Assembly (NCBI GenBank): GCA_963792585.1
Contig: CAWBWI010000003.1
Span: forward strand, 672,001 to 736,000
Source of the DNA: Candidatus Eiseniibacteriota bacterium
GTDB taxonomy: Bacteria > Eisenbacteria > RBG-16-71-46 > CAIMUX01 > VGJL01
DNA length: 64,000 nucleotides
Reading direction: 5' to 3'
In this document: in pieces, positions 26,800-51,858 of the stretch
How positions within the stretch are numbered: the first letter of the stretch is position 1
Layout: every line of letters begins with the position of its first letter
Translations under genes and position numbers: made by a program
The notes under the pieces: generated by a model
The model's database searches: none
What the model was told of the DNA's origin: nothing
What the model saw: the letters and a program-made list of their open reading frames with translations, nothing else

Positions 26800-27162
26800 C
26801 TACGGGCAGGTAATCGGGCCGATCTCAATGGAGTCGCTGGACTGCTCGCCGTTGCACGTGCAGAACATGGTTACGCGGTAGTAGTAGCCACTTCCGCAGC
26901 CGGCGAAAGGACCGCAATCGACGTAGGGTGAAGATCCGTACGGCGACCCGATGAGAAGCCAGGTGCCGCCGGGGCCGCACTTGCGCTCAATGTTGAACCA
27001 CAGCAGACTGCACCCGTCGAGATTCGAAGTCCAGGACACGTTCACGCAGTTTCCATTGCAGGCCAGCTGCCCATTGGAGATGTCGCAGGCGCCGGCAAGC
27101 GAGCCGAAGGCGCTGAGGAGAAGCGCAACTGCAATCATCCCGAAGAACGTTCTGATTCGCAT
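26800..27162 (-). CDS. Secreted Cys-rich FN3-like mini-protein 1 (ends GPITCP)
   Basis: Signal peptide, 10 Cys in the mature part, W..FNIERKC...W...Y.D...YYRV pattern. SD AGGA. Confidence 0.85.
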   Translation of the reverse strand: MRIRTFFGMIAVALLLSAFGSLAGACDISNGQLACNGNCVNVSWTSNLDGCSLLWFNIERKCGPGGTWLLIGSPYGSSPYVDCGPFAGCGSGYYYRVTMFCTCNGEQSSDSIEIGPITCP

Positions 27163-28229
27163 GGTAAGTCTCTTCCTTTCCAGATAGTAGGTTTGACCGA
27201 TGACTTGTCACCAGGATTCCGAGTAACCCATGCGGAGGGCCGCGGCAGGGCCGGGCACCAAGCTGATCAAGGTCCTTTCCTGTCCGGTCACGTGACCTCT
27301 CGACGGACCAGCCGGCCACCGCGGATTGGCAGGAGCTACTGCGCGTCCGACCGGTTTCAGGTGTGGCCCGGAATCCGGCCCCGTACCGACTTCCCAGCAT
27401 GAATCCCGGAGAGCACGAATAAGGTGCAGTTGCTACCTCGGGTGCTGCAAAAGCAGACACTTGCGGATCACCAAGGGCCGGTGCGCGTGGAACCGCAACT
27501 ACCTCATCCATGCCAGAGGGGGCAGAGCTTGGCGTGACGGAGGTTACGAATAAGAACTCCTCGCGGGCCGGCACCACAATCCCGTCCTTTCAGTATTCAT
27601 GGCCGCGGAAAGCTCCGGTACTTGCCATCACATGTGCGACCATGGCCGCAGAACGCATTCGCGCACCCCAGGACGCTCGTGCATGAAGCATGCCGCTGGG
27701 GAGTGGGGCTGCGATCCGTCTCGCAACGTGGCCCGGTTCGTGCGATTCAATCTGCAAACGACCCGATCGTGGGGCAAGTCCTCGTTCGTCATGTCGCCCT
27801 TTGTTGCTTGTCATTGAAAACCCATGTTGACATTCCGAGGTGTCCAAGTCTTCCGCGGCCCCGATTGCGTCATCGTAACCATCAGCGGCAATGGTGGCGC
27901 TCTCCTTCCATGTGATCATCCAAGACCCATGATCGGAGCACTGGGGACGCGCACCGTAATTGTGCAAACGATCGTGCTACCGCACAAATGCGAGGCCATT
28001 TCAGCCACCGAACGAATTCACATAATGTGTAGGCAATCGATCGGGAAACCGATCGTTAGCAATTCCAGAGCGTGGATGACAGTGCCGGCCATGCCATAAA
28101 GTATCCTGCGGCTTGAGCCAGATTCCAGATGAGCTTGGAACGTAGACTTAATGCCACGAATACGCTTGATGTGCGACGAACAGCCGGATTATAGACGCGA
28201 ATGTGACGAGTCGGTCGTGAGCTGGGCCC

Positions 28230-28245
28230 TGGCACAGTCCGTGCT
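28230..28245 (+). promoter_or_regulatory. Sigma-54-type -24/-12 promoter
   Basis: TGGCACAGTCCGTGCT (GG-N10-GC), 130 bp upstream of mini-protein 2. Confidence 0.55.
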
Positions 28246-28374
28246 CGGTTCTCGAACGGGTCACGTGAAGCGTGTCCCGCTCGCGAGCCGGACGGTGTGG
28301 TGCGTCTTCCAAGGACGCGCACTCCAGGAAGGACCGCCCAGGCCGCGAGGGTCTCCGAAACGGAGGAATCCGAC

Positions 28375-28734
28375 ATGCGTGCTGGCATCTTCCTTCTCAC
28401 GCTCCTTCTTCTCGGATCCTGTTTCCTTGTGTCGGCCCGCGCCGATGACGGCTGCGGCCACGTCTATGACGGCCGCTACTCCTGTAGTGACGCGGCGATC
28501 AACATCAGCTGGTCTGCCGTCATCGAGCAGGGCTGTACGCCCACCTTCACGATCCAGCGGAAATGCGGCACTTCGGGGACGTACACGACGATTGAGACCG
28601 ATTGGGATGGACTGAGCTACACGGACAAGCCGAACACGGGCTGCCTCTTCGGCTGGTACTACAAGATCACGATCCACTGCTCGGACTGCCCGGGCGGGGA
28701 TTCCATCGTCATTGGTCCCATAACCTGTCCGTAG
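28375..28734 (+). CDS. Secreted Cys-rich FN3-like mini-protein 2 (ends GPITCP)
   Basis: SD GGAGG, signal peptide ending ARA, 8 mature Cys, paralogous to 26800-27162. Confidence 0.87.
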   Translation: MRAGIFLLTLLLLGSCFLVSARADDGCGHVYDGRYSCSDAAINISWSAVIEQGCTPTFTIQRKCGTSGTYTTIETDWDGLSYTDKPNTGCLFGWYYKITIHCSDCPGGDSIVIGPITCP

Positions 28735-28931
28735 TTGGAACGGCATGAGGCGGAGGCGAGCGAAGCCGCCTGGTCGGGGGCGCTGCAGGCCGGGGAATGG
28801 TGCCACACCCTTGCTGTCGTGTGTACCCGCGTCCGGGTGTCCACGGAGTTCCGGTTCGACCCCGGTCGGACCGTCGCTCATGGCATCCCGCCGCCGAGCG
28901 AAGGCTGCCTGTCTCCTTCAAGTGCCACGCG

Positions 28932-29111
28932 ACTCGGGCCGCGCATCCACTTGGGCCGCTCGAAGGAAGGGAGGAACGATTCTTCGTCTCCGGCCGAACC
29001 GAGACGGTCGGATTCTCGACCCCCTTCGCGGAGGAGGTTCCAAGCTTCTGGCATCGGGGAGACGCAGCTTCCCGATGCGCCGAGCGCCTGGGTGGATGGC
29101 GGTCCGTGAGT
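28932..29111 (+). ncRNA. Putative structured RNA or leader element (long closing stem with G-U pairs, internal hairpins)
   Basis: 28932-28962 pairs with 29081-29111 using several G-U wobbles. Internal hairpins include CGTCTC/GAGACG and GCATCGGG/CCCGATGC. Confidence 0.4.
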
Positions 29112-29151
29112 GTGCGAATGGTCGAAGGTCAAATTGCCAAGGAGGATTCCC

Positions 29152-29520
29152 ATGAAGCGGTTCACTCTGGGTGTTGTGGTTGCTTCCATTCTGTTGGCCG
29201 GCGGCGCACTTGTGGGGTCCGCCCAGGCCATGGAGTGCAAGCTGGTGCCGATCGAACCGGCGATCACCTGCGACGGATCTTGTCATGTCGTCGTCTGGTC
29301 CTACACGTGCAACTGCGGCACGCCGACGTTTAACATCGAACGCAGCTGCTGCGGGGATCGGTGGGCGACCATCGCGACGAACGTCACCGGCTCGAGCTAC
29401 AACGACTGTTCGTCGAACTGTGGAACAACGCGGTACCGGATCACCATGAATTGCCCCCCTACCTGCACGTGTACCGGTTCCCTCACCTACACGACAGCCG
29501 ACTGTAAGACGTGCCCATAA
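29152..29520 (+). CDS. Secreted Cys-rich FN3-like mini-protein 3 (ends CKTCP)
   Basis: SD AGGAGG, signal peptide ending AQA, 14 mature Cys, TPTFNIERSC...WATI...YND...YRIT. Confidence 0.87.
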   Translation: MKRFTLGVVVASILLAGGALVGSAQAMECKLVPIEPAITCDGSCHVVVWSYTCNCGTPTFNIERSCCGDRWATIATNVTGSSYNDCSSNCGTTRYRITMNCPPTCTCTGSLTYTTADCKTCP

Positions 29521-29679
29521 CAAGCTGAACGAGCGCTCAAGGCGAAATCCCTGAGTGCGATCGTAAGGGGATGCGAACGGCCGGGGAGTCCGGCGATCCT
29601 GACTCTCCGGCTACACCGAGGCGGTCCGGGCGCTCCGTCCAGAACGGGCCGGTTCCCGGACCTGAAAGGAGAGTCCATC

Positions 29680-30048
29680 GTGATACGCAAGTTGGTCGCG
29701 AGTCTTGTCGTTGCGGGCCTCTTCGCAATTCTCCCGAACATCGTTCTCGGGGAGACCTGCACGTTCAACGGAACGCTCCACGGTTCCTGTTACACGCACC
29801 AGGGACAGACCTGCTTCATCTTTCACTTCGTTATCCAGGCATCGGAGGATTGCGAACCATGGACGGTCGATGCCTACCGCGTTCCGGTCACAGGCTCGCA
29901 CTGGACGCTCGTGGGGCAGGATATCCACAATGATTGGTTTGACTGCCCTAACTGGTCCGAGGGTCCGTTCGACTACAAACTCGTCCTGACCTGCAAGGGC
30001 TGTGGGAAGACGGAAGCGGCGTATCTGCAGGGAATTGACTGCCCGTAG
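29680..30048 (+). CDS. Secreted Cys-rich FN3-like mini-protein 4 (ends GIDCP)
   Basis: SD AAGGAG before the GTG, signal peptide, 8 mature Cys, YR...WTLVG...FDC...DYKL. Confidence 0.85.
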   Translation: MIRKLVASLVVAGLFAILPNIVLGETCTFNGTLHGSCYTHQGQTCFIFHFVIQASEDCEPWTVDAYRVPVTGSHWTLVGQDIHNDWFDCPNWSEGPFDYKLVLTCKGCGKTEAAYLQGIDCP

Positions 30049-30106
30049 AGAGCGCCGATTCCTGAGCGTCACGGCCGACGGGCAGTCGGCCGTGGGGAGG
30101 AATGCA

Positions 30107-30526
30107 ATGAGTCCGTTACGGAAGAAACCAAGCGTAGCGATTGACACTGTTCCATTGCCGGAACATACGGCGAGGGGAACGCTTGCCAAGGTTCGAAACA
30201 CGTATGTACTCAAGGTCAAGCGCCGCGTCATCAAGTTTGCGGCGAGCTCGATCCTGCCGGCACAGGAGCTGGACAGACTCGCGGGGAAAGAGGTTCTTGT
30301 CGCCTTCTCCGCGTCGCAGCCGAGCAACGTCGTCGCAATCACGAAATGGCCCCGACCGGCACACGTGAAGTGCTATTGGATCCTATGCTACGTGCCGGTT
30401 CCGGAACTCATGCGCAGGATTCAGGATCAGGTGAGGACCGATCTTCTGAATCAGATGGTGAAGGCGGGGGTGATTGCACCCGAGCTTGGGAAAGAGATCA
30501 AGATTGGGCTCCAAAGTCGCATGTAG
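30107..30526 (+). CDS. Hypothetical protein overlapping the radical SAM gene (contains CYWILCY)
   Basis: SD GGAGG, 139 aa, basic, overlaps the start of the rSAM gene. Confidence 0.75.
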   Translation: MSPLRKKPSVAIDTVPLPEHTARGTLAKVRNTYVLKVKRRVIKFAASSILPAQELDRLAGKEVLVAFSASQPSNVVAITKWPRPAHVKCYWILCYVPVPELMRRIQDQVRTDLLNQMVKAGVIAPELGKEIKIGLQSRM

Positions 30527-31607
30527 ACTCAAACGAGTCGTCTTCGAAGTGACCGAGCGCTGCAACAACGCTTGTGTCCACTGCTACAATTCCTGGAGGG
30601 AGGGAGCGTCTCGCGGAGGGTCCGGCGCCTGCCTATCGAGAACCCGATTCCGCGACCTGCTCTCAGGGATCCTGCGCGACGCCCCTCTCTCGCAGATCGC
30701 GTTCTCCGGAGGAGAGCCCCTGCTCTGTCCGGAGCTTCCCGAAATGGTGTGCGACGCGACCGATGCCGGACTCAGTAGCGTCGTGATCACGAACGCAGCA
30801 CTCCTGGACACTTCCATCGCGAAACGGTTTCCGGAAGGCACGATTTTCGAATTCACGCTCTTCAGCTCCCGTGCCAGCGTACACGATGCGATGGCCGGCC
30901 GGCGGGTGTTCGAGCGTGTTCTCGAGGCGGCGGCCCGCCTGCTTCGAAATGGTCATCGGCTCGCCGTCGTCTGCGTCGTGACACGGAGGAACCTCCGGGA
31001 TGTCGGCGGCGCGATCGATCTGGCAATCGCGATCGGGGCCGACGCGGTGCTCCTGAACCGGGTGAACCTGACCAAGCGGACGCTGGCGGCAGCCGAGGAC
31101 TTGGTGCCCGCGGCCTCCGAACTTCGGGAGGCATTCGACGCCGCGGAGGATCGTGCGAAGCGGTACGGCGTCGCGGTGTCTGTTTCGGTCCCCATGCCCC
31201 CCTGCGTGCTCGATCCGGGGCTGTACGAACACTTGCAGTTCGGCTTCTGCCCTCGCGGCGGTCCCGAGTCCTACTACACGATATCGTGGGATGGCCACCT
31301 CCGGCCGTGCAACCACTCGTCTCGAATCTTGGGCGATCTCGCTCACGAGGGGTTTGGGGAGCTTGTCCAGGGCTCTCGAGCGAAGGAGTTTTGGTGGATT
31401 GCCGTTCCACATGAATGTCGGGGGTGCGTTCACCCCCTCAAGCAGATGTGCCTGGGCGGTTGTCCGGCCGCGGCCATGGAGTGTACGGGTAGATCAGGGC
31501 AATTGGATCCCTTTGTAGGCCTCGCGATGCGGCATCGGAAATCGCGATTGCCCCTTGGCCACGGCTCCCACGAGAGATTCGAAGGCCGGCTTGAAGGCCC
31601 ATTCTAG
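30504..31607 (+). CDS. Radical SAM / SPASM domain enzyme (PqqE-like)
   Basis: CNNACVHC, FSGGEPLL, ITN, SPASM cysteines FCPRG...GHLRPCN...CRGC...CLGGC. TTG start inferred. Confidence 0.92.
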   Translation: MGSKVACRLKRVVFEVTERCNNACVHCYNSWREGASRGGSGACLSRTRFRDLLSGILRDAPLSQIAFSGGEPLLCPELPEMVCDATDAGLSSVVITNAALLDTSIAKRFPEGTIFEFTLFSSRASVHDAMAGRRVFERVLEAAARLLRNGHRLAVVCVVTRRNLRDVGGAIDLAIAIGADAVLLNRVNLTKRTLAAAEDLVPAASELREAFDAAEDRAKRYGVAVSVSVPMPPCVLDPGLYEHLQFGFCPRGGPESYYTISWDGHLRPCNHSSRILGDLAHEGFGELVQGSRAKEFWWIAVPHECRGCVHPLKQMCLGGCPAAAMECTGRSGQLDPFVGLAMRHRKSRLPLGHGSHERFEGRLEGPF

Positions 31608-32225
31608 CCCTGCCATCGATGGTACTCCATGGCCTACGGACTAGGGGGGGCCGATCACCGCGATCACCCCTCGAGACGGTCGCGACTGCACAATAATGAT
31701 CGTTGTCGCACCAAAATGGTGCGTGTACGTCATCCTCCATCAACCCACGGCTCTTGGTAACTTGTTCGCCCTGGGATTGACACGAGTCCAGGAGGGCGAT
31801 ATCGTAGCGCGCACTGAATGAGATACGTCGCCCTGGTGCGGGGCTCACCGGGGATGCGACGCGCAGATGGATGTGCTCTTCTGAATGTAAGGACCCCCAA
31901 TGCGCGGTGTGATCGCAACCGGTGACGGCGAGGCCTGGACTGCCCGTAAGCACGCTATGACTGAGCATCCGGTAGCTCGGCCCGGATTGTCCCAAACCAC
32001 CCAGCGAGCTCATCTCCTGCCTCTGCCTCGATGCTACTGGGTCCATCCCGCCCCTCTTCATATTTCATGGTTCGCGTCGGAGGCGTTCACGACAGCCCTG
32101 CACCATATCGGATCGGGTAGGTTCCTAATGCGACGAGCGGTGGAAATGGGATCCACCCTCCCCATAGACGACGGTCAGGATTCTCTTTCGGGAGCGTTGA
32201 CCCACATACCCCCATGGAGGAAGTC

Positions 32226-33032
32226 ATGGCAACCGAACTTGAACAAGTACTGAAGAAGGCCAAGTACACGGCCCTGCCGCTGCCCCGCGCAAAGGCGGGC
32301 CCGACGACGATCTACGCCTTTCACGACGGACAGCTCTACATCGTGAGAAACGCTCAGACCTGCCTACCTCTACCCGTTACACCGGATCCGTCGGTGGATG
32401 TTGTGCAGTTCAGCCGGGAATACAAGTTCACACTTGGTGGAGTTGTGGGGTTCCTGGCTAAGCTCTTTGGCACGGGAAATGCCAAGGGCGAGCTTGAAGT
32501 CCACGCAATCAAGTCGGCAGCAATTCAGCTGGGCGGACTCTCCCATGAGACGATCGAGACCGGGGCCCTGCTGGACTATCTGCTCGCACAGAAACCATCA
32601 CCGTGTCTGCGGGATCTGCTCCGCCCCGAGAACTTGACGATCGTCGCCGCGCTGCAAGCCAAGACCTTCACGTTCACCTTCAAGACGGCGAAGGGGACGA
32701 CCGTGAAGTTCTCCGCTGAGGAGGCGAAAGGCCTGTTCCGAGGCGATGCGAGCGTCGCCATCGAAGTTTCGGAGTCGGGCCAAATCGTTGTGAACGCCCC
32801 CTGCTATGTCGGGGTCATCAGCTGGGATGGGAAGACGATGAAGAGGGAACTCGAGAGGGCCCGACGGGCGGTCACGCACCAGGCGGTCCTACCCTACCGT
32901 CCCAGCAGCCTTGTCGGACCCGCACTAACCTCGGACGAGATTCACGTGCGGAGATTGAAGGGGCTCGAACCTCTGCCTCTCCGAAGACCGCGCGCCTCAG
33001 AGGCGGGGCGGAAAACCAGAGGCAAGAAGTGA
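32226..33032 (+). CDS. Bacterial gasdermin-like pore-forming protein
   Basis: Order and spacing of motifs match bacterial gasdermins as I recall them: L..YTALPLPRAKAGP..I, GVVGFLAKLFG, AIKSAAIQLGGLSHETIETGALLDYL, IVAALQAKTFTFTFK..G. 268 aa, adjacent to a protease gene. Confidence 0.78.
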   Translation: MATELEQVLKKAKYTALPLPRAKAGPTTIYAFHDGQLYIVRNAQTCLPLPVTPDPSVDVVQFSREYKFTLGGVVGFLAKLFGTGNAKGELEVHAIKSAAIQLGGLSHETIETGALLDYLLAQKPSPCLRDLLRPENLTIVAALQAKTFTFTFKTAKGTTVKFSAEEAKGLFRGDASVAIEVSESGQIVVNAPCYVGVISWDGKTMKRELERARRAVTHQAVLPYRPSSLVGPALTSDEIHVRRLKGLEPLPLRRPRASEAGRKTRGKK

Positions 33033-33049
33033 CGCCAGAAGGGGGAAAC

Positions 33050-34741
33050 ATGGACCAGAGGAGACCATCGTTGCGCTCGCCTACGCGGAAACTCACCGTT
33101 CTCGCGCAGGACCCGGCGGTGGTCGTTGATGGCAGTGTCCCTGTCGCCGACATTGAGATTCCGGAGGAGCCGCTCTCGCCCGGCCCGCGCGGGTACCGCG
33201 TCTACGTCATCGATTACGACGCGAGCCACGACACCCTCTACGCGCCGGCGCGGATTCCGGTCCTCGGGCGTCCCATCGACGAACTTCTCAGGGACCCGGC
33301 GTTCCACGCCCAGCACGTCTACGGAGTGGTTACGCGCACGCTCGCCTGCTTCGAAGAAGCGTTGGGCCGGAAGGTAGCCTGGAGCTTCGACGGGCATCAG
33401 CTCATGGTTGCCCCGCACGCCTTTGAAGACCCGAATGCCTTCTACTCGAAGCGAGATCGCGCCCTGTACTTCGGCTACTTTACGGGACCAAAGAAGGAGC
33501 GGGTCTTCACGTGCCTCAGCTACGATGTCGTGGCGCACGAGACGACGCACGCAATCCTCGATGGATTGCGAGGACGCTACACCTTTCCATCATCTCCCGA
33601 CCAAGCGGCCTTCCATGAGGGATTCGCGGATGCCGTGGCCCTTCTCTCGGTATTCTCGCTTCCGGATGTTGTTGAGCGCTTCCTGATCGCCAAGGGACGG
33701 AATACGTCGTGGGTACACCTAGAGGCGCTCTCTGTGGAGCGGTTGAAGGAGAGCGCACTATTTGGGCTCGGGGAGTCCCTGGATCCGGGAGGCAGGGCAC
33801 TTCGGCGATCGGTGAAGATACCGGAGGATCCAAAGCTCAAGGACCAATCGGAATTCCTGGAGCCGCATCGCCGGGGCGAACTGTTCGTCGCGTCGCTCCT
33901 GGGGACCTTCCTGCGCATCTGGCGGCGACGGATCGAAGGTCTGAGCGCGGATCCAAACCCCCGTCTCTACGTGACGAAGGTCGCAGAAGAAGGTCAGGCG
34001 GCGGCTGAGCATCTCTTGAGAATGGTGATCCGGGCCGTCGACTACGCCCCCGCGACGGATCTCCTTTTCGGCGATTTTCTAAGTGCGCTGCTCACTTCGG
34101 ATCGCGAGATCCAACCCGATGATTCCCGTTACCATTACCGCGATGCACTGCGGGAGGGTTTCGCCGCGTACGGCTTCCTGCCGGCCTCGAAAGCCGGCGA
34201 CCCCAGTGACGGCCGCGGGTACTGGGAAGCGCCCAACGTCGATCTCGACTACGCCCACCTGCACTTCGAGGCGCTTCGGCAAGACCGGGACGAGGTGTTT
34301 CGGTTCCTGTGGCAGAACCGGACGGGACTGGGGCTTTCCGAGGAGGGCTACACGCGTGTGCATTCCTTACAACCATGTGCGCGACGCGCTTCCGACGGTG
34401 CGCCCTTGCGGGAAACGGTGGCCGAGTACCATCAGATTCTCGATCTGACAGCCGGCGAACTGGTCCGTTTCGGTCTGCAGGCTCCCAAGGGGATGCCAGA
34501 GCGTCAGTCCATCACCCTTTACGGGGGCGGGGCCCTGATCTTCAACGAGTTCGGCGCCCTTAAGTACCACGTCCGGAATCGGGTGCTCGGGGCTTCCCGG
34601 CAGAACAAACGTCTCCGGTATCTGTGGGAATCCGGGTACTTCCAAGCAGAGGCGAGTGACCAGCGGTTCGCCGACATGCATCGTCGCCGCTTCGGCGTCG
34701 GGCTGCTCGGCGGGGGGGTGTCTCATGCCGCCTTCTTCTAA
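33050..34741 (+). CDS. M4/thermolysin-like zinc metalloprotease, no signal peptide
   Basis: PNAFY...LYFG, DVVAHETTH (HExxH), HEGFAD third zinc ligand, EPH catalytic His. No hydrophobic leader. Confidence 0.9.
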   Translation: MDQRRPSLRSPTRKLTVLAQDPAVVVDGSVPVADIEIPEEPLSPGPRGYRVYVIDYDASHDTLYAPARIPVLGRPIDELLRDPAFHAQHVYGVVTRTLACFEEALGRKVAWSFDGHQLMVAPHAFEDPNAFYSKRDRALYFGYFTGPKKERVFTCLSYDVVAHETTHAILDGLRGRYTFPSSPDQAAFHEGFADAVALLSVFSLPDVVERFLIAKGRNTSWVHLEALSVERLKESALFGLGESLDPGGRALRRSVKIPEDPKLKDQSEFLEPHRRGELFVASLLGTFLRIWRRRIEGLSADPNPRLYVTKVAEEGQAAAEHLLRMVIRAVDYAPATDLLFGDFLSALLTSDREIQPDDSRYHYRDALREGFAAYGFLPASKAGDPSDGRGYWEAPNVDLDYAHLHFEALRQDRDEVFRFLWQNRTGLGLSEEGYTRVHSLQPCARRASDGAPLRETVAEYHQILDLTAGELVRFGLQAPKGMPERQSITLYGGGALIFNEFGALKYHVRNRVLGASRQNKRLRYLWESGYFQAEASDQRFADMHRRRFGVGLLGGGVSHAAFF

Positions 34742-36008
34742 ACCCAACACTGTATCGGTTCGTACGTACCAGGTCGGCTTCGGGGACTGCTTTCTTCTGG
34801 GGTTCCAGTACACCAGAGCGACCCGCTACGTACTCATCGACTTCGGCACGACCGGAACTCCGGATGGGCGGGACAAAGCGCGTTTGACAGCGATCGCGAA
34901 GGACATCCGACAGCGCACGGGGAGCAAGCTACATGCGGTCGTCGCGACACACCGCCATCGCGACCACATCGCAGGCTTCGACCCCTCGGGCAAGGACGCT
35001 CCAGGGGGCATCATCGCCTCGTGTCAACCTGATGTCGTGCTGCAGCCGTGGACGGAGGACCCCGAGGCACCGAAGAACGCCACCGGACCGACGCGGTTGC
35101 GAGTAGCGTGCTTCCGACAGGTCACCCAGTCCATGCAGGCCTTCTCGGAAGCGGTTGTCGCGGAATCGGGGCACCTGGCCGTGTCGGCAGGTCTGGCCGC
35201 GGAACTCGGCTTCCTCGGGCAAGAGAATCTCCCCAATGTCAAGGCGGTCAAGCAGCTTCAGGCAATGAGCACTAAGCCCGTCTACGCCTATGCAGGTTCG
35301 TCCTCGGGGCTAACGGGGGTCCTGCCGGGGGTGAAAGTCCACGTGCTCGGGCCTCCGACTTTGGCGCAAACCGATGCCGTCAAGAAGCAGCGAACGAAGG
35401 ACGCGGATGAGTTCTGGCAACTCCAAGCTGCGGCCTGGGGGCTTCAAGCAGCCGCCAGTGGTGCAGGGAGGAGTACGGAGTCGCTGTTTGACGCGGAACA
35501 CGTCTCTGCCCGTCGTCCGCCCGAAACTCGCTGGTTCCTCCGCCATGCCTCGCGGACGCGCGGGGAGGAACTCCTGGGGCTTGTGCGCACTCTGGACAAA
35601 GTCCTCAACAACACGAGCCTGATCCTCCTCTTCGAAGTCGGTGCCCTCCGACTCCTCTTCCCGGGCGATGCGCAGATCGAGAACTGGTCCTACGCCTTAG
35701 GCCAGGCGAAGGTCCGCCAGCTACTGAAGTCTGTGAACCTTTACAAGGTAGGCCATCATGGAAGCCGGAATGCGACGCCGAAGAGTCTCTGGGCACTATT
35801 CGACGCACGGTCGGCGACCGATTCGGCAGAGAGGCTCCGTACGCTCCTCTCAACGATGGCCGAAAAGCACGGATCCGTGGAGAGCCACACCGAGGTGCCA
35901 CGAGAGACCCTCGTGAAGGCTCTTCGGCAATCGAGTGAGTTCTTCTCCACGCAGTCACTACGAGGCAAGGGTCTGTGCCAAAGCCATGAGACCATACTTC
36001 CGGTCTAG
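34725..36008 (+). CDS. Metallo-beta-lactamase-fold hydrolase (ComEC/Rec2-like, putative nuclease)
   Basis: VGFGDCFLL, LIDFG, THRHRDH, NNTS, LFPGDA, KVGHHGS. Overlaps the protease gene by 17 nt. Confidence 0.9.
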   Translation: MPPSSKPNTVSVRTYQVGFGDCFLLGFQYTRATRYVLIDFGTTGTPDGRDKARLTAIAKDIRQRTGSKLHAVVATHRHRDHIAGFDPSGKDAPGGIIASCQPDVVLQPWTEDPEAPKNATGPTRLRVACFRQVTQSMQAFSEAVVAESGHLAVSAGLAAELGFLGQENLPNVKAVKQLQAMSTKPVYAYAGSSSGLTGVLPGVKVHVLGPPTLAQTDAVKKQRTKDADEFWQLQAAAWGLQAAASGAGRSTESLFDAEHVSARRPPETRWFLRHASRTRGEELLGLVRTLDKVLNNTSLILLFEVGALRLLFPGDAQIENWSYALGQAKVRQLLKSVNLYKVGHHGSRNATPKSLWALFDARSATDSAERLRTLLSTMAEKHGSVESHTEVPRETLVKALRQSSEFFSTQSLRGKGLCQSHETILPV

Positions 36009-36116: not shown

Positions 36117-36527
36117 ATGCCGCTATCCCGCGAAGACTGCCTATCGATTCTGCGTCACCTCCAGCTCACGCTGCGTGATGCTGATCCCGCTGCGTTCGAG
36201 GTCATAGCGGCCAGTCTCGAGCCGATGGAGGACCCACGTCGACTCCTGCTTGCGTATCTGGGGAGGACGCGTCAGGTGCTCGCGGAACGATCCGGAGGCA
36301 ATGAAGGCAGAATCCTGAACCTCGTGAATCACTATGTGCGGACGGAAGAGGGCGGTCCAATCACAGGCGTCCGCCTGGCGTTGACGGGGTTGGAACGAGA
36401 GCAATACGGCCGGGAGTTCGTGGACCTTGCGTCTCTGCCGGATCACCGAGAGTTCGTCGCGGGCCTGGAACGCCTCCAGGCTGACATCCAACGTGAGAGT
36501 CGGGGATCTGGGGAGATGGAACGATGA
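36117..36527 (+). CDS. Hypothetical helical protein
   Basis: SD GGAGG, 136 aa, ATGA overlap with the next gene. Confidence 0.7.
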   Translation: MPLSREDCLSILRHLQLTLRDADPAAFEVIAASLEPMEDPRRLLLAYLGRTRQVLAERSGGNEGRILNLVNHYVRTEEGGPITGVRLALTGLEREQYGREFVDLASLPDHREFVAGLERLQADIQRESRGSGEMER

Positions 36528-37201
36528 CTGCGGCAGAGGTCCGACGCAGGATCACGGACTTGTTCCAAACGTACCTTTCGACATCAAGATCCGTTGCGAG
36601 TTCCTTACTGCCGGCGTCGGTGACCGCCGGCAAGCTTTACGAAGCCTACGTTCTAGCCCTAGTCTCCCGGGAACTCGTCGCAAACGAGGGTGTCACTCTT
36701 AGACTTGTTCGCAGCAATGCGCTGACGCTCAAATCTGCTCCAGGCCCGATCAATCGTCAGTTTCCCTGCATTGAGATTCTCCGAGCGGGGTCGTGTATCG
36801 CAGAAATGTGGACCGATGTGGAGTTCGTTTCCTTGAGCTACAGCATAACGGCGGGCGGTTCGAGGCCAGCGGAGCGAGGAGAGTTTCATGAACTTGACAT
36901 CGCGGTTGTCGACCCCGGTCTGACCGGCCGACCTGCTCATAGCAGTGTTTGGCTGGCGGTGGAGTGCAAGAACACCGGGTACCACAAGGCGCTCCTGAAG
37001 GAGATTCTTGGTGTCCGTCGGGAGCTTAGCCTCCTGCAAGATCCTCAGGCGACGCACTTTCTCCGTTGGCCGCGGTCTACCGTGCCAGCCAACCCACCCT
37101 CGTGTCTCGTCGTGTACGCGAGCGACCCCAGGGTCATTGAGTATGCACGGCCGGGCGAGGTCTTCGGGATCGACTTCTACCATGAAGAATTGGCCCTGTG
37201 A
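36524..37201 (+). CDS. PD-(D/E)xK restriction-endonuclease-fold protein
   Basis: GKLYEAYV...ELDIAVVD...AVECKN motif order. Confidence 0.75.
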   Translation: MTAAEVRRRITDLFQTYLSTSRSVASSLLPASVTAGKLYEAYVLALVSRELVANEGVTLRLVRSNALTLKSAPGPINRQFPCIEILRAGSCIAEMWTDVEFVSLSYSITAGGSRPAERGEFHELDIAVVDPGLTGRPAHSSVWLAVECKNTGYHKALLKEILGVRRELSLLQDPQATHFLRWPRSTVPANPPSCLVVYASDPRVIEYARPGEVFGIDFYHEELAL

Positions 37202-38010: not shown

Positions 38011-41000
38011 TCACGTGGCATCCATGAGAATCCGCGCCTGGAGCGCGAGACCATCCGTGAGCAGACCCGTGCTGCCGATCCCGCGCGCGAGCGCGATCGC
38101 CTGGGTGAGCGACTCAGACGCGCGCTCTCGCTCCCCGACACGCCAGGCTCCTCTCGATAGCCCAAGTAGGGCGCGGCCGCGGTAATAGCCGTGGCCCGGC
38201 GTGACGAGGACTGCCAGTTCCTCGGTGAAGGACTGAACCGCGAGACGGCCCAGATCATCTGCAGTTCGGTCGGTGTCGGCCTGAAGCGCGGCGAGGCCTA
38301 CGTGATGAAGGTACCGGGCGGCTGCGAGGCGCTCCGCTAGTCTGCGGCCAACTTCGACCTGCCTGAGGAGGGAGTCGAGGCCCTCACGGTGCCGTCCCTC
38401 CGCCTGCGCCAGGAGGGCGGACGCGCGAGCCTCCGTCGTGAGAGAGTCGGGATCTGGACCGTGGACGCGTCCGCGGTATTCGTCGGCATGCTCCCGGGCG
38501 AAATCCCAGGCCTCGAGGTCGATGAGGATATCCATTCCGAATCTCAGGCATTGAGCTTGGAGCGAGTGCGGGGCCGAGCTCATGGCGTCCATCCAGGCCG
38601 CGTAGCACTCGCGGATCGCGGCGGACCCGGCGCCGCGGTTCAGGTGGCAGTACGCGAGGAGCAGCCGAAGTGGAATCGCCCGCATGGGCGCAAGCCGCAC
38701 GATGGACAGAGAGAGCAGGGCCTGCGCCTCCTGGAAGGCTGGCTCGATCCGGTCGAGGTCTGCCCAGGCGCAGGCGCGTCGAATCCGCAGGCCGACCCGC
38801 CTCGCCTGCGACATCCGGTGCCCAATCGTGCGAAGGAAGGAGTCGGTGCATTCTTCCGCGAGGCGGAAGGGGCCACCGTTCCCGTAGACGAGCGCGAGGT
38901 TGTGCCGCAGCTGAGCCCCGAGTTCCACGTCCCGGGCAGAATCCGCTGCGGTCCGGAGGAACTGGATTGCTTGGTCCGGAGACGACCCGAACTGGAGGAT
39001 CGCCAACAATTGAAGACTGAGCGCCTCGTAGTAACTCCCTGAACCCCGCAGACCCTCCACGGCTCGCTCGGCGTGCACCACGGCCCCCGCTGTGTCCCCG
39101 GCCGCCATGAGGTGCCGCGCTTCGAAGAAGTCGAGGATCCCGGTGGGAATCTCGGCGCCGGCGGTGAGCTCCCGGTGGTAACCGCGATACTCCCCTGACG
39201 CAGGCTGATCGGCGACTCGATCGATGAGGAGGAGGAGCGCCTCGGCCGAGGCCTCGGGATCCCCTCCCGAGGCGACCTGCTCGAGGAGCACGACCGCCCG
39301 CGGCGGATCCAGCGCGAGCAGACCGGCGCCGAGGATGAGCCGTGCGCGATCTCCACTCGTTGCGGCGTTGAGCCGATCAGCTAGCTCGTCCGCCGCATCA
39401 GCGATCGTGTCCGGATCGCCGCTTCGGCCCGTCGCATGCCCGACGAGCTCGAGGATGTCGCGCCACCCCCGCCGGTCGAAGGCGGCCATGAGGCCGGCAG
39501 CGAGAACCTGTGCTTCCCGTGACGGGTCTCCCACGCTTCGGGCCACCTCGCAGGCCTGCTTGACCAATTCGACGTCGTCCAGGTCCGGGGCGGCCCGCTC
39601 GTTCAACCACCGGTCGATCGAGGGCGCGAGAGGGTCGTCCACGATCGACAGCTCTCGCCGCAAGCGTCTCGTGACGAAACGGAGTCGGTCGGGGGCGACC
39701 CGCAAGAGGTAGCCCTGGTCGATGAGCGCGGGCAATCCAGATTCGCCGCCGAAGCGCGCGAGCAACTCCTCAGCCAGCTCTGCCGGGAATGCGTACCCCG
39801 CCCGCGCGCACCGCTGAAGCGGAATCAGAAGTTCTCCGGGAACCGCGGGAGTCGGATGGAGCGTTGTGGCGAGGACCGCGCGCATGGCGCGTGCCCCTGC
39901 GCCACTCTGTCTGAGCCTCCAGGCTGAACCCTCCTCCGAACCCATGGAGCGCACGTACGCATCGAAGCCTCGTGCTGCGTCCCCAAGGTCACCCTCCGTG
40001 TCGTCGAGTAGCGGGCGCACGAGCGCCTCGCCTCCGGCGTCCAAGGACCCGAGTGCAGTGACCACGAGTTCGCGATAGCTCTCCTCCGAGAGCGGCGAAA
40101 GATAGACGGAGGTCGTCCGCGCTCCATTGCGAAGGCTCATCACACGCTCACGGATCGTCTGCGGGAGCCAGGAAACCGACGGGGACGGGTCGGGCACGCC
40201 ACACAGGATTGTGATGGACGAAGCATCGTGCTTCCCGAGAAACCTGGTCGCAAGCTCCAACCCCGAGCTCGGCAGGTTGCCAAGATCCACGACACGCGCG
40301 GGCGGGCCGCCGGCCGCGACGTGGGCGATCAGGGCTTCGAGGAGGAAGCGCGTCAGCCCGGTGCCTGGACGCGCCTGGATGAGGATGGTGATCGGATCGG
40401 CGGTCGCGGTGCTCTGGACGACGGTCGCGAGGTCTGAGCTCCGGCCACGCATTGGACCGGCGGGAAAGCGCGGAAACCGAGCGGTCGAGGGCGCCAGGTT
40501 GAACGCGCGGGCGATCGCATCGCGGGCCGCAACTGCACTTGGATAGCGGTCCGCGGGGATCGGCGCGATAAGCTTCTCGAGAATGGTCCGCCAAGCGGAA
40601 TCCGACTCGAGAGCGGGGAAGCACGCGCGGAGGACGCGGCCGAGAGAGAAGAGATCCGCACGGCCGTCGGCGAACCATCCGCGCTGAACCTCCGGGGCAA
40701 TGTACCGCGCCGTACCCCCGCGCTCAGCGACGGGTGAGTCGGCGAATCGGTCGAAAGCGAAGCCGAAGTCCAAGAGGTGAACAAGACCGACGGTCCCGTC
40801 AGTGGGAACAAAAATGTTGTCGGGCCTGATGTCGCTGTGGATCCATCCGATGCGGTGAACCTGCGCGAGCGCCTGGCAGATCTCGTTCGCAACCCGCGGG
40901 ACTTCGAGCGGAACAGCGTGGCGGACGCAATCCGCGAGCGTTCCCCCCTCCAGGCGCTCGAGAACGAGCGTGAGGCTCTCGCGGCCGTGCCAGATGAGGT

Positions 41001-41196
41001 CGATGAGCCGGGGCGCAACACCCGGCGGCAACCGGAGAAGACAAGTTGCTTCCTGGAGCGCTGCGCGGACGGGCGCCTGCTTCAGAACGACCGGTCGAGC
41101 GCACCACTCGTCATGGGCAAAGTCGACCGTCCGGCCTCTGAATCGCGAGAGCTGCCGTTCGCGTCTGTATCGGGGATCCCTCATCGGCCCCATCAT
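38011..41196 (-). CDS. Hanks-type Ser/Thr protein kinase fused to a degenerate NTPase and TPR-like repeats
   Basis: VVLK, HSDIRPDN, DFG, YIAPE, DLFSLG. Degenerate P-loop ARPGTGLT. Long helical repeat C-terminus. Confidence 0.85.
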   Translation of the reverse strand: MMGPMRDPRYRRERQLSRFRGRTVDFAHDEWCARPVVLKQAPVRAALQEATCLLRLPPGVAPRLIDLIWHGRESLTLVLERLEGGTLADCVRHAVPLEVPRVANEICQALAQVHRIGWIHSDIRPDNIFVPTDGTVGLVHLLDFGFAFDRFADSPVAERGGTARYIAPEVQRGWFADGRADLFSLGRVLRACFPALESDSAWRTILEKLIAPIPADRYPSAVAARDAIARAFNLAPSTARFPRFPAGPMRGRSSDLATVVQSTATADPITILIQARPGTGLTRFLLEALIAHVAAGGPPARVVDLGNLPSSGLELATRFLGKHDASSITILCGVPDPSPSVSWLPQTIRERVMSLRNGARTTSVYLSPLSEESYRELVVTALGSLDAGGEALVRPLLDDTEGDLGDAARGFDAYVRSMGSEEGSAWRLRQSGAGARAMRAVLATTLHPTPAVPGELLIPLQRCARAGYAFPAELAEELLARFGGESGLPALIDQGYLLRVAPDRLRFVTRRLRRELSIVDDPLAPSIDRWLNERAAPDLDDVELVKQACEVARSVGDPSREAQVLAAGLMAAFDRRGWRDILELVGHATGRSGDPDTIADAADELADRLNAATSGDRARLILGAGLLALDPPRAVVLLEQVASGGDPEASAEALLLLIDRVADQPASGEYRGYHRELTAGAEIPTGILDFFEARHLMAAGDTAGAVVHAERAVEGLRGSGSYYEALSLQLLAILQFGSSPDQAIQFLRTAADSARDVELGAQLRHNLALVYGNGGPFRLAEECTDSFLRTIGHRMSQARRVGLRIRRACAWADLDRIEPAFQEAQALLSLSIVRLAPMRAIPLRLLLAYCHLNRGAGSAAIRECYAAWMDAMSSAPHSLQAQCLRFGMDILIDLEAWDFAREHADEYRGRVHGPDPDSLTTEARASALLAQAEGRHREGLDSLLRQVEVGRRLAERLAAARYLHHVGLAALQADTDRTADDLGRLAVQSFTEELAVLVTPGHGYYRGRALLGLSRGAWRVGERERASESLTQAIALARGIGSTGLLTDGLALQARILMDAT

Positions 41197-41461
41197 CCCC
41201 GGCTACCGGGGACCCGCACACCGCTTTCCCATTCCCCTGACAGCGGGTCCCATCCCATACCCTGTGCCTCTAGGGGGAATCGCCGCCCCCGCACGCATCG
41301 TACAGTCGACCAAAGCGTTGGAACGAGTCAGCCAGCGCCGTGAGCTTCATCCGGGCGTTCATTTTGGTGCAGATCAGTCCTTGATAGCAACATGGAAATT
41401 TCGGCATACTGGTGCTCCTGAAACCCTGGGCGCCGTTGGCCGGCGCCAGCGAGGAGGAACC

Positions 41462-43120
41462 ATGAAGACGCGCGACCGCGAGGGCAGCGAGACGGGCGCG
41501 GCCCGTCGCGCCAAGCTCGATCAGACAGCCGGAGAGCTGGCCATCCTCGCGGCCGACCGCGCGAGCGCGGGTGACGTTTCCGCCAGGCAGGCTACGACGG
41601 TCGTGGAAGAGGCGGCGACCTGGGCCGGGAGGCAGGAATTCCTGGCCTTCCAGGGGTTGGTGACGGCCGTGACGGCCCACCTCGATCTGCACGGGCTTCT
41701 GAAGTCAATCCTCGACGAAGCGGTTCGGGCGGCCAGCGCCGAACGCGGCCTGCTTTTCCTCGGCCGTCAGGATTCCGGCGGCATGGTTCCCGTCCTCGCG
41801 GTCAACCTGCGCGGTCAGGGGCTCGAAACAGCGGAGCGGGTCAGCCGGACGATCCTTGCGGGTGCCCAAGCCGGCCAACTCATCCTCACCCAGGATGCAC
41901 TCGCGGATCCGCGATTCATGGATGAGCCGAGCATTCAAGCGAACCGGATGCGGTCGATCCTCTGCACGCCGCTCGTCTCACCGACCGGCCAGGTCGGTGC
42001 ACTCTACCTCGACTCGAAGGCGGCCGGCGGCTTTCCCAGCGGCACGCCGGACGTGGTCCAGGCTTTCTCCCGCGTGGCGGGGACCGCCCTGGAGCGCGCC
42101 CAGGTCCACGGGGAGCTCCTCCGAGAGAATGCGCGGCTACGGGCGGGGGCTGGATCGCCGGACCCGCTAGACCGGTTGGTCGGAACGTCAGAGCGGATCG
42201 AGTCGGCGCGCAGGCAGGCCCGCATCGCGGCACTCATGGCCGCTCCCGTCCTGATCGTCGGCGAGCCGGGGACCGGCAAGCGGCTCCTCGCGGGCATCCT
42301 GCACGACCTGTCGAAGCGGTCCCACGCCACCTTCATCGGCTGCGACTGCGCCACGATCCCCGGGCAGTTGCTGAGCGGCGCGGTGCTCGGCCGGATGGGG
42401 ACCGCGGTCAAGAACTCAGGGAGCGAGGAGCGTGGCTGGATCGCCGAAGCGGACCGGGGGACACTCTACTTGGCCGGCGCGGAGGCGATCGGCCAGGACC
42501 TGGGGCTCGCCCTCGCCCGCGTCGCGGAACGAGGCGCGTACCGCCCGGTCGGAGGCCGGAAGGAACGGCCCGCTGATGTACGGCTCCTGCTCGGAATCCG
42601 GCCCATTCCGGTAGGCGCGGGGGGCTCGCTCCCCCTTCCGGCGTCGCTCACCTCGATCCTGCCGGAATTCCACCTCGTCCTTCCCGCGCTGCGGGAGCGG
42701 CCAGAGGACATCCCGGCCCTCGTGGGCCACTGGACGCGCGTCGTCATGGACGGCACCGCGGAATCGGGCAAGATCACCTTCACCCTGCAGGCGCTTGCGA
42801 CCCTGCAGGAGCAGTCTTGGCCCGGGAACGTGCGCGAGCTCCGCCAGGTTCTCCACCGGGCGCTGCTCACCCGGCGCTCGGACGTCATCGACCACGATCA
42901 CGTCCGTCGCGTGCTCGCGGCCGGATCCAAGGCAGAAGATTCGACCTATGGTCCGTGGTCCGGGAGTATTCGGACCCTACAGGAGTGGGAGGACGAGGCG
43001 ATTCGGCAGGCGCTCTGGCAAACACATGACAATAAGGCGGAAGCGGCCAGGCTCCTCGGGATTCACCGCAACACACTCATCCGGAAGCTCAGCGGCACCG
43101 ATCGCACGGAAGCCCAGTAG
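41462..43120 (+). CDS. Atypical sigma-54 activator-like regulator (GAF-AAA+-Fis HTH) with degenerate motifs
   Basis: GAF domain, GEPGTGK, WPGNVREL and NKAEAARLLGI are present, but GAFTGA is replaced by GRMGTA and Walker B reads TLYLAGAE. Confidence 0.85.
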   Translation: MKTRDREGSETGAARRAKLDQTAGELAILAADRASAGDVSARQATTVVEEAATWAGRQEFLAFQGLVTAVTAHLDLHGLLKSILDEAVRAASAERGLLFLGRQDSGGMVPVLAVNLRGQGLETAERVSRTILAGAQAGQLILTQDALADPRFMDEPSIQANRMRSILCTPLVSPTGQVGALYLDSKAAGGFPSGTPDVVQAFSRVAGTALERAQVHGELLRENARLRAGAGSPDPLDRLVGTSERIESARRQARIAALMAAPVLIVGEPGTGKRLLAGILHDLSKRSHATFIGCDCATIPGQLLSGAVLGRMGTAVKNSGSEERGWIAEADRGTLYLAGAEAIGQDLGLALARVAERGAYRPVGGRKERPADVRLLLGIRPIPVGAGGSLPLPASLTSILPEFHLVLPALRERPEDIPALVGHWTRVVMDGTAESGKITFTLQALATLQEQSWPGNVRELRQVLHRALLTRRSDVIDHDHVRRVLAAGSKAEDSTYGPWSGSIRTLQEWEDEAIRQALWQTHDNKAEAARLLGIHRNTLIRKLSGTDRTEAQ

Positions 43121-48801: not shown

Positions 48802-48950
48802 ATGGCGAAACGAAATGATGGAAGGGTCGCCGCGGAGCAGAAGTCCGTCGGCATCTGGATCCGCGTCTCCACCGAGGACCAGGCCCGGGGGGAGAGCCCT
48901 GAGCACCACGAGAAGCGCACCCGGATGTACGCCGAGGCGAGTGGTTGGCG
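48802..48950 (+). pseudogene. Truncated 5' fragment of a large serine recombinase
   Basis: [35 protein letters not shown]. 48847-48950 matches 50374-50477 with 12 mismatches in 104 nt. Confidence 0.9.
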
Positions 48951-50331: not shown

Positions 50332-51858
50332 ATGACGTCGAGCAACGATCACGTCGGTCCCACCGCCAAGCAGGTCGGCATATGGATCCGCGTCTCGACC
50401 GAGGACCAGGCCAGGGGCGAGAGCCCCGAGCACCACGAAAAGCGCGCTCGGATGTACGCCGAGGCCAAAGGATGGCGGGTCCGTGAGGTCTACCACTTGG
50501 AAGCGGTCTCCGGGAAGACCGTCATGGGCAATCCTGAGACCGAACGCATGCTGGAACACATCCGGCTCGGACACATTTCCGGCCTCATCTTCTCCAAGCT
50601 CGCTCGCCTGGCCCGGAATACCCGGGAGCTCCTCGAGTTCGCGGACATCTTCCGCGATCAAGACGCCGACCTTGTCTCCCTCTCGGAGGCGATCGACACC
50701 TCGACTCCGGCCGGCCGTCTCTTCTTCACCGTCGTCGCGGCGATGGCCCAGTGGGAGCGGGAAGAGATCGCGGAGCGGGTCGCGGCTTCCGTCCCGATCC
50801 GCGCCAAGCTTGGCAAACCCCTCGGGGGAGCCGCCCCCTTCGGGTACCGCTGGGAGAACCGGGAACTCGTCCTCGATCATACGGAGGCCCCGGTCCGCCG
50901 GCTCATGTACGAGCTTTTCCTGGAGCACAAGCGGAAGAAGGCTGTAGCCCGCCTCCTCAACGAGAAGGGCTACCGAACTCGGAGTGGTTCGAAGTTCACA
51001 GACACGACGGTCGACCGTCTCCTACGCGACCCACTGGCGAAGGGTGTACGCCGGGCCAACTACACGAGGTCCTTGGGTGCCAAGCGGAACTGGATCCTGA
51101 AACCCCAGGAAGAGTGGGTCATCTCCCAAGTCGAACCGATCGTCTCCGATGAGATCTGGGCCCAAACGAACGCGCTCCTCGATGGCCGCCGGCAGAACGG
51201 GAAGCGCCCCGCGAAGCGGCCGGTCCACCTGTTCTCCGGTCTCGTGACCTGTGGGTGCGGGTCAAAGATGTACGTCCTCACGAAGACGACGAAGTACGGC
51301 TGCCAGAAGTGCCACACAAAGATCCCGATCGAGGACCTCGAGGCCGTGTTCGCCGAACAGCTCAAGAGCTTCGTCTTTTCCCCCGAGGAGGTCGCCGCCC
51401 ACGTCGGCCGGGCTGACGAAGACCTCAAGACCAAGGAGGAGACCCTCCGGACCCTCGAGACCGAGCGAGACCGCGTCGCCCGGGAGATGGACCGTGTCTA
51501 CAATGCCTACGTCGCCGACGAGATCTCGGTCCAGGGATTCGGTCGCACCTACCGCCCGCTCGAAGAGCGCCTCAAGCAGATCGAGGACGAGATCCCCCAG
51601 CTCCAGGGCGAGCTCGACTTCCTCAAGATCCAGTTCCTCTCCCGGGACGAGATCCTCACCGAAGCCCGGGACCTGTACTCCCGCTGGCCCTCCCTCGCAC
51701 CCGAAGAGCGCCGTCAGATCGTCGACACCATCGTCGAACGGATCGTCATCGGCCCAGGCGACGTCGAATTCCATCTGAGCTACCTCCCTTCCTCCGCTCC
51801 TGAACTCATCACAAATTCGCAACGCAACGTCACGGATTCATGGCGCCCACGAGCATGA
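50332..51858 (+). CDS. Large serine recombinase / integrase (resolvase + recombinase + zinc ribbon + coiled coil)
   Basis: YIRVS-type motif WIRVSTEDQ with catalytic Ser, LARLARN, PFGY, CGCG...CQKC zinc ribbon. Confidence 0.95.

Follow-up and report, generated by a model that had tools for sequence, protein, structure and literature searches.

A 64,000-nucleotide (nt) stretch of a Candidatus Eiseniibacteriota genome (contig CAWBWI010000003.1, positions 672,001 to 736,000; hereafter the window) carries an operon of three genes that encode a divergent bacterial gasdermin (bGSDM), a cytoplasmic thermolysin-like zinc protease and a hydrolase of the metallo-beta-lactamase (MBL) fold. The triad is real and conserved, and apparently undescribed. 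Within it the protease and the MBL protein form a widespread, co-diverging core and the gasdermin is a rare, exchangeable add-on. The reading modestly favoured here is that of a death module gated by the zinc protease, which would have an MBL pro-nuclease as its fixed substrate, would also clip the gasdermin tail and would serve in abortive infection against phage. If this is true, thermolysin-type zinc proteases join those already known to activate gasdermins and MBL pro-nucleases, a large unannotated protease family gains a function, and one and the same protease controls a pore as well as a nuclease. With its three genes, the unit is compact and tractable in E. coli.

The features of the operon, with lengths in amino acids (aa), are as follows.

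32226..33032, + strand: divergent bacterial gasdermin (gene 1), 268 aa; PADLOC, NCBIfam, Foldseek, alignment of 48
32877..33032, + strand: gasdermin C-terminal tail, aa 218-268, predicted autoinhibitory peptide; model secondary structure and structural alignment, function inferred
33050..34741, + strand: cytoplasmic M4/M36-like zinc metalloprotease (gene 2), 563 aa; Pfam, fold, hhalign
34226..34678, + strand: extra C-terminal beta-sheet domain of the protease, ~aa 393-543; weak fold likeness, lead only
34725..36008, + strand: MBL-fold hydrolase (gene 3), 427 aa, predicted pro-nuclease; partial defence-MBL/ComEC matches, insert length

The three proteins of the operon

The layout given by the original prediction, which was made from the sequence alone, holds: the three open reading frames (ORFs; 32226-33032, 33050-34741 and 34725-36008) are co-directional, with a 17-nt gap between genes 1 and 2 and a 17-nt overlap between genes 2 and 3. 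The host genome has a single copy of each.

Gene 2 had been described as a protease with HETTH, HEGFAD and EPH motifs and no signal peptide, and this description stands. The motifs are present, residues N129, H163, E164, H167, E190, D194, R252 and H273 do not vary among 43 homologues and follow the order of what we take to be the equivalent catalytic set of thermolysin, and HExxH..HE is kept in 38/38 proteases. The model of the protein (predicted local distance difference test, pLDDT, 86) aligns with M36 and M4 enzymes across residues 10-388, with Z scores of 16-18 (17.9 to the M36 enzyme 7qp3, 17.1 to the elastase 1ezm), and hhalign aligns the family with true M4 proteins at a probability of 96% (E 2.5e-9). 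By its predicted fold, its HExxH motif and the downstream Glu, the enzyme is assigned to the gluzincins (M4/M36). The catalytic domain spans ~aa 10-385; since the model aligns with mature M4/M36 enzymes from residue 10-13 onwards and the protein lacks a hydrophobic N-terminus, neither a signal peptide nor an N-terminal propeptide is present. These two marks of classical secreted M4 enzymes are thus lacking, and the score with Pfam Peptidase_M4 (PF01447), 20.6 bits, lies under the cut-off of 22.4. The protease shares the catalytic fold and the HExxH..E zinc site with thermolysin (M4) and fungalysin (M36), but differs from M4/M36 enzymes in its low identity (10-16%), the lack of a signal or an N-terminal FTP/PepSY propeptide and the possession of an extra C-terminal beta domain. 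This last domain, possibly inhibitory or sensing, has no Pfam or Atlas match and weakly resembles the M36 propeptide chain 4k90_B (Z 5.6, root mean square deviation (rmsd) 5.0 over 98 aligned residues) as well as cystatin folds. Its interpretation as a relocated propeptide was not upheld when 28 true propeptides were compared by hhalign (probability 0.6%, not above the controls) and is kept as a lead only.

The protease family comprises at least 4087 clusters at 90% identity (8000 candidates scored), without a relative in viral contigs. Fusions occur to S8 subtilase (8/8 long forms scanned) and to TPR-S (1). One plasmid copy is annotated as 'peptidase M4', adjoining an 'MBL fold metallo-hydrolase'. 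As to whether the system is already catalogued, gene 1 is matched by the PADLOC bGSDM model, and 43 members of the protease family have no PADLOC match and no meaningful NCBIfam match.

The proposal that gene 1 is a divergent gasdermin is well borne out. The PADLOC match reaches E 6e-15, and the score with NCBIfam prok_gasdermin (48.5 bits) lies under the curated cut-off of 100; judged by sequence, the clade is divergent and outside the latter model. The gene is unrecognised by the Pfam copy searched, a single-sequence search of PDB sequences gave nothing relevant, and a profile match to 7n51 was obtained at E 3e-5. The AlphaFold model, built on 48 homologues (pLDDT 80), retrieves 7n51/7n50/7n52 in Foldseek at E 2e-10 to 8e-9 and matches these three solved inactive bGSDMs with Z scores of 14.9, 14.1 and 13.5, the next entry having 7.2; the best match, to 7n51 (Z 14.9), has an rmsd of 3.7 over 216 aligned residues, at only 11-14% identity to the solved bGSDMs. 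As modelled, gene 1 encodes a bacterial gasdermin with the pore-forming fold.

In the same model a helix (202-217) is followed by a loop (218-235), a second helix (236-245) and a basic end. The structural alignment reaches residue 238-249, opposite the tail regions of 7n51/7n50/7n52, and the tail is predicted to be an autoinhibitory peptide in the place equivalent to that of known bGSDM tails. The loop, which contains AVLPY, is a candidate cleavage loop, and one of its columns holds L/F/V in all 18 rows linked to the protease; the only row linked to a caspase has G there. Thermolysin-type enzymes prefer cutting before Leu/Phe/Val; the column fits this preference, if it does not instead reflect packing. 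Lys/Arg-rich C-termini (32973-33032 and homologues) are found in most of the clade.

No Cys occurs in the first 10 residues of the clade members (0/49), and the first residue of gene 1 lies opposite chain residue 4 of 7n51. The palmitoylated N-terminal Cys of most, not all, bGSDMs is thus absent from this clade. A pair of other cysteines, C46 and C127, is invariant in the alignment of the clade (48/48).

The MBL motifs of gene 3, reported beforehand as complete, are indeed so: H76, H78, D80, H81, D315, H344 and H345 are the same in all 18 homologues and constitute a complete metal site. Partial matches were obtained to LmuA, Avs1a, 6A-MBL and ComEC models, with scores below the defence-MBL cut-offs (54.5 vs 420 bits for Avs1a, 34.2 vs 220 bits for 6A-MBL), and the nearest solved sequence is ComEC 9ic4 (E 5e-10). 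By our own counts, the distance from the first His to the catalytic Asp is 239 aa in gene 3 vs 102 in 9ic4, i.e., ~137 extra; a published zymogen MBL has 215 aa, ~113 over ComEC (10.1101/2025.11.14.688446). As far as sequence comparison indicates, gene 3 combines the intact metal site, ComEC-like core and inserted loops of protease-activated MBL nucleases, and by analogy with them its product is probably a self-blocked DNA-cutting enzyme (pro-nuclease). Some partner MBLs carry basic N-terminal extensions.

Linkage and co-divergence of the genes

Neighbourhoods of the gasdermin clade were collected from 30 metagenome loci, which form 23 groups after 90% dereplication. In 18 loci (two of them cut by contig ends) the next gene encodes the protease, and in 20 the protease lies ≤3 genes away; after dereplication it is next in 15 groups and within three genes in one more (16/23). 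The MBL gene follows the protease in 15/15 gasdermin loci where this is visible, and the conservation of the gasdermin-M4-MBL synteny is supported. As the protease family is carried by only 19/301 sampled genomes of one phylum, its position next to the gasdermin in 15/23 groups exceeds chance; the family was also found in 4/40 relatives and 53 plasmid records. The other 7 groups comprise one with MBL-patatin upstream and a contig end, two with patatin upstream on short contigs, one with C14 and CHAT, one on a short contig lacking the protease, one with a frameshifted gasdermin that also lacks it, and one cut by the contig end.

Seen from the protease, the picture is that of a pair. The MBL gene is adjacent in 15 of 27 protease genome loci (11/16 short forms and 4/11 long forms, several of the MBL-less loci having flanks of only 1.5 kb) and in 3/3 plasmid loci inspected (of 53 records). 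A gasdermin of the gene 1 clade occurs in none of the genome loci (0/27), and neither plasmids nor 401 genomes of a second phylum gave a gasdermin match. The original emphasis, in which the MBL protein was a second effector or a regulator, is reversed: it is no accessory, the protease and the MBL protein being the co-diverging core, mostly gasdermin-free. Distances of the two co-vary (Mantel rho 0.87, n=12, and 0.80, n=26; p=0.0005), with p values that overstate the significance on account of related rows and with partial proteases left out. One-to-one co-evolution of gasdermin and protease was not found (rho 0.11). On a tree of 36 proteases the 14 gasdermin-adjacent ones require at least 5 changes, and a single clade is rejected (p-AU 4e-61) in a test posed after sight of a quick tree. 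The closest metagenome relative of the window gasdermin (66%, locus L003) lies before a protease only ~30% identical to that of the window. The pattern of co-divergence and the protease tree together indicate that the protease-MBL pair moves as a unit and that the gasdermin returns to, or swaps between, members of the protease family.

Several neighbours belong to defence systems. Septu-like PtuAB lies directly upstream of the triad in L004 and L022, and the same ATPase families occur in L006 and L016; a plasmid protease copy is flanked by CBASS and WYL, and SIR2-STAND is another defence neighbour. A SIR2-like domain fused to a PtuA-type ABC ATPase, together with PtuB, was noticed directly upstream of the triad in L004, L006 and L022 and in partial form in L007 and L016, and is a candidate sensor arm. 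Hydrolase neighbours include patatin, PLD, astacin (between MBL and gasdermin in L011/L012), S8/kumamolisin, a second short MBL and DUF2278, with DUF2235 and DNase II also seen. The short second MBL (~275 aa) stands upstream of the gasdermin in L009, L014, L015, L018, L020 and L021, preceded in all of these except L009 by an uncharacterised protein of ~195 aa; L014, L015 and L020 have two family proteases each. The gasdermin of L026/L027 is also flanked by a metallophosphoesterase.

Proposed mechanism, alternatives and known systems

In the protease-gated death module, the cytoplasmic thermolysin-like protease and its fixed MBL partner would form the core. The inserted loops of the MBL protein would block its active site until cut by the protease, whereupon a free DNase would result; where a gasdermin is present, the protease would clip the loop at ~aa 218-235 before Leu/Phe/Val, and tail release would let the gasdermin core form membrane pores and the infected cell die. 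The extra C-terminal domain of the protease probably keeps the enzyme inactive, and activation may come from a signal of infection or stress, or from a sensor or protease further upstream. Folds, catalytic residues, gene order and the co-divergence pattern are results of the analysis; both cleavages, the nuclease activity, the pores, the trigger and the anti-phage role are inferred. In favour of protease gating we count the zymogen-sized MBL inserts with the adjacency and co-divergence of protease and MBL, the recurrence of gasdermin neighbours in at least 5 parts of the protease tree, the lack of a C14/CHAT match in the window, and a defence context given by the Septu-like PtuAB, CBASS and WYL neighbours and the TPR-S and S8 fusions.

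A number of points weigh against it. Co-divergence is absent between gasdermin and protease (rho 0.11, p=0.12, n=14) and between gasdermin and MBL (rho -0.02, n=12), and neighbouring genes can co-diverge merely through joint transfer. One of the 23 groups (L026/L027) lies beside C14 and CHAT proteases, not M4-like ones, 8 CHAT-like ORFs lie in other parts of the host genome, and a Runella caspase is specific for its own gasdermin, according to the text of its description (10.1101/2021.06.07.447441). In addition, the conserved hydrophobic residue of the tail loop may pack on the gasdermin core, the many lipase and protease neighbours (patatin, PLD, astacin, S8/kumamolisin) fit other roles too, and the triad has no conserved sensor gene.

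Part of this evidence would be accommodated if the protease served the MBL protein only and the gasdermin were a co-regulated lodger, activated by host CHAT, astacin or S8 proteases or free of cleavage (e.g., through C46-C127), an explanation that we consider rather doubtful. It agrees with the lack of gasdermin-protease co-divergence, with the caspase/CHAT neighbours in L026/L027, the astacin in L011/L012 and the 8 CHAT-like ORFs of the host, and with the Cys pair invariant in 48/48 sequences; a disulfide-controlled, cleavage-independent gasdermin is known in Trichoplax (PMC13475620). However, it is difficult to account for gasdermins that adjoin several protease subfamilies time and again unless the two are functionally linked, and the modelled tail sits where the cleavable peptide of bGSDMs lies. 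A role other than anti-phage defence, in which hydrolases and a pore-former act in antagonism or developmental death and become extracellular after lysis or by non-classical export, is improbable: the nearest gasdermin relatives look exported (81/94 signal-like, 79/81 of these with both Cys), the nearest solved proteases are secreted enzymes and patatin, PLD, DUF2235 and DNase II are among the neighbours, but none of the three proteins has a signal-like N-terminus, the protease lacks an N-terminal propeptide, Septu, CBASS and WYL are neighbours and the MBL protein resembles defence MBLs. Very improbable is a stable toxin-antitoxin-like or housekeeping protease-MBL pair that lacks regulated cleavage, with the gasdermin linked by island hitch-hiking through homologous exchange, since, although the pair is common, often alone among ordinary genes and tightly overlapped or abutting, catalytic residues are kept in 38/38 proteases and the MBL has zymogen-sized inserts.

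The protease-gated module has close counterparts. The partner proteases of bGSDMs in the study of Johnson et al. from 2022 are reportedly C14/CHAT, subtilase, U49/Lit and trypsin-like, not M4; U49/Lit is itself a zinc protease, so that a metalloprotease partner as such may have precedent. According to the text of 10.1101/2021.06.07.447441, 43/50 bGSDMs adjoin proteases, mostly C14/CHAT, and that text, apart from the figures and Table S1, makes no mention of metalloprotease or U49 partners. The triad shares with bGSDM-protease systems, as far as the available portions of the sources describe them (10.1101/2021.06.07.447441; PMC10312443), the gasdermin fold, a short tail in the predicted autoinhibitory position and a protease next door. 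It differs from them in that the partner is M4/M36-like instead of C14, CHAT, subtilase or trypsin-like, in that the gasdermin has invariant C46/C127 and no N-terminal Cys, and in that a co-encoded MBL is present and a CARD or NLR gene is not.

Similar likenesses and differences hold for the MBL protein. The accessible text of 10.1101/2025.11.14.688446 describes three MBL clades paired with trypsin, caspase and S8 and leaves metalloproteases unmentioned. In common with the MBL nucleases of Avs, Hachiman, Lamassu, DRT and Canu, as described in the available parts of the sources (10.1101/2025.11.14.688446; PMC12799240; 10.1101/2025.09.03.673762), gene 3 is ComEC-like, has large inserts and adjoins a co-diverging protease; in those systems, however, the proteases are of trypsin, caspase or S8 type and usually sensor-fused, with the MBL typically upstream, whereas here the zinc protease is mostly stand-alone, the MBL lies downstream and the motif is HxHxDH. 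The S8-M4 fusions beside this MBL family (4/11 long forms) could be the S8 'clade 3' of Evans. Our literature search, which fell mostly short of subscription papers and key supplements, yielded no report in which an M4-like protease partners a gasdermin or a defence MBL. The newness claimed for the system is thus retained for the combination of genes and not for its principle: protease activation of MBL nucleases and gasdermins is established for other protease classes, so the triad is a variation on known logic, which resembles the protease-gated gasdermin and MBL systems but departs from them in its partner protease.

Apparently exported relatives and genomic setting

A profile search with gene 1 across 1.84 billion representatives returned 130 matches, 17 of them at E<=1e-30. 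Among 94 full-length distant matches, 81 have signal-like N-termini by a crude hydrophobicity rule; 79/81 keep both Cys, which suggests a disulfide, and a loose lipobox pattern occurs in 53/94. Three canonical-like matches, so labelled by appearance, do not have the Cys pair. A tree separates the clade and the apparently exported proteins from these three (100/100); nesting of the clade inside the exported group was hinted at by FastTree, but a careful tree left the order open with a long-branch warning, and for this reason no direction of descent is claimed. P0199-P0301, relatives of gene 1 from this profile search, form a large gasdermin-like group with signal-like N-termini; nearly all members have a Cys pair, and many have a lipobox-like Cys, mostly 15-16 residues before a conserved Tyr, near the position of the palmitoylated Cys in canonical bGSDMs. 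The literature search found no paper on these apparently exported gasdermin-like proteins, whose link to the clade bears on the origin of gasdermins and of their lipid anchor.

A wider proposal, possible but tentative, makes the large cytoplasmic thermolysin-like family the fourth class of proteases in bacterial immunity: kept inactive by a propeptide-like C-terminal domain, its members would simultaneously license several death effectors, namely an MBL nuclease, a gasdermin and perhaps patatin/PLD lipases. The gasdermin would come from an exported, lipoprotein-like, disulfide-bearing lineage and may on that account carry a second, redox lock, and the palmitoylated Cys of bGSDMs may correspond to the lipoprotein Cys.

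The placement of the operon in a mobile island, as originally claimed, is partly supported. Its GC content is 0.62 vs 0.65 for the genome (10th percentile), inside a broad low-GC stretch, its tetranucleotide distance is at the 79th percentile, a large serine recombinase is encoded at 50332-51855, 14 kb away, and the gasdermin clade has no match in 205 other genomes of the same phylum; on the other hand, no tRNA occurs in the 64-kb window and the island ends are undefined. The 104 bp at 48847-48950 duplicate the 5' end of the recombinase gene at 88% identity and may be an integration scar, and an ATPase at 45614 has weak coupling-protein matches. An S46 peptidase lies 17 kb from the operon, and one promoter-like site at 31777 is not above chance.

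Downstream of the operon, outside the conserved triad, are two more co-directional ORFs.

36117..37201, + strand: ORFs of 136 aa and 225 aa

Neither has a Pfam, PADLOC or NCBIfam match or a tblastn match in the other collected loci; in the longer one a PD-(D/E)xK-like motif was read by eye. Upstream (26800-31607), several small Cys-rich ORFs with signal-like starts adjoin a radical SAM/SPASM gene, and the four scanned have no Pfam match. A kinase-TPR gene and a GAF-sigma54 activator (window 38014-43120) stand 2-4 kb from the protease-MBL pair. An ortholog of the kinase-TPR gene (42% identity), again with a GAF-sigma54 activator, is found at L083:1-8486, likewise 2-4 kb from a protease-MBL pair in G027, where there is one match to the kinase and where the protease is of a different subfamily from that of the window.

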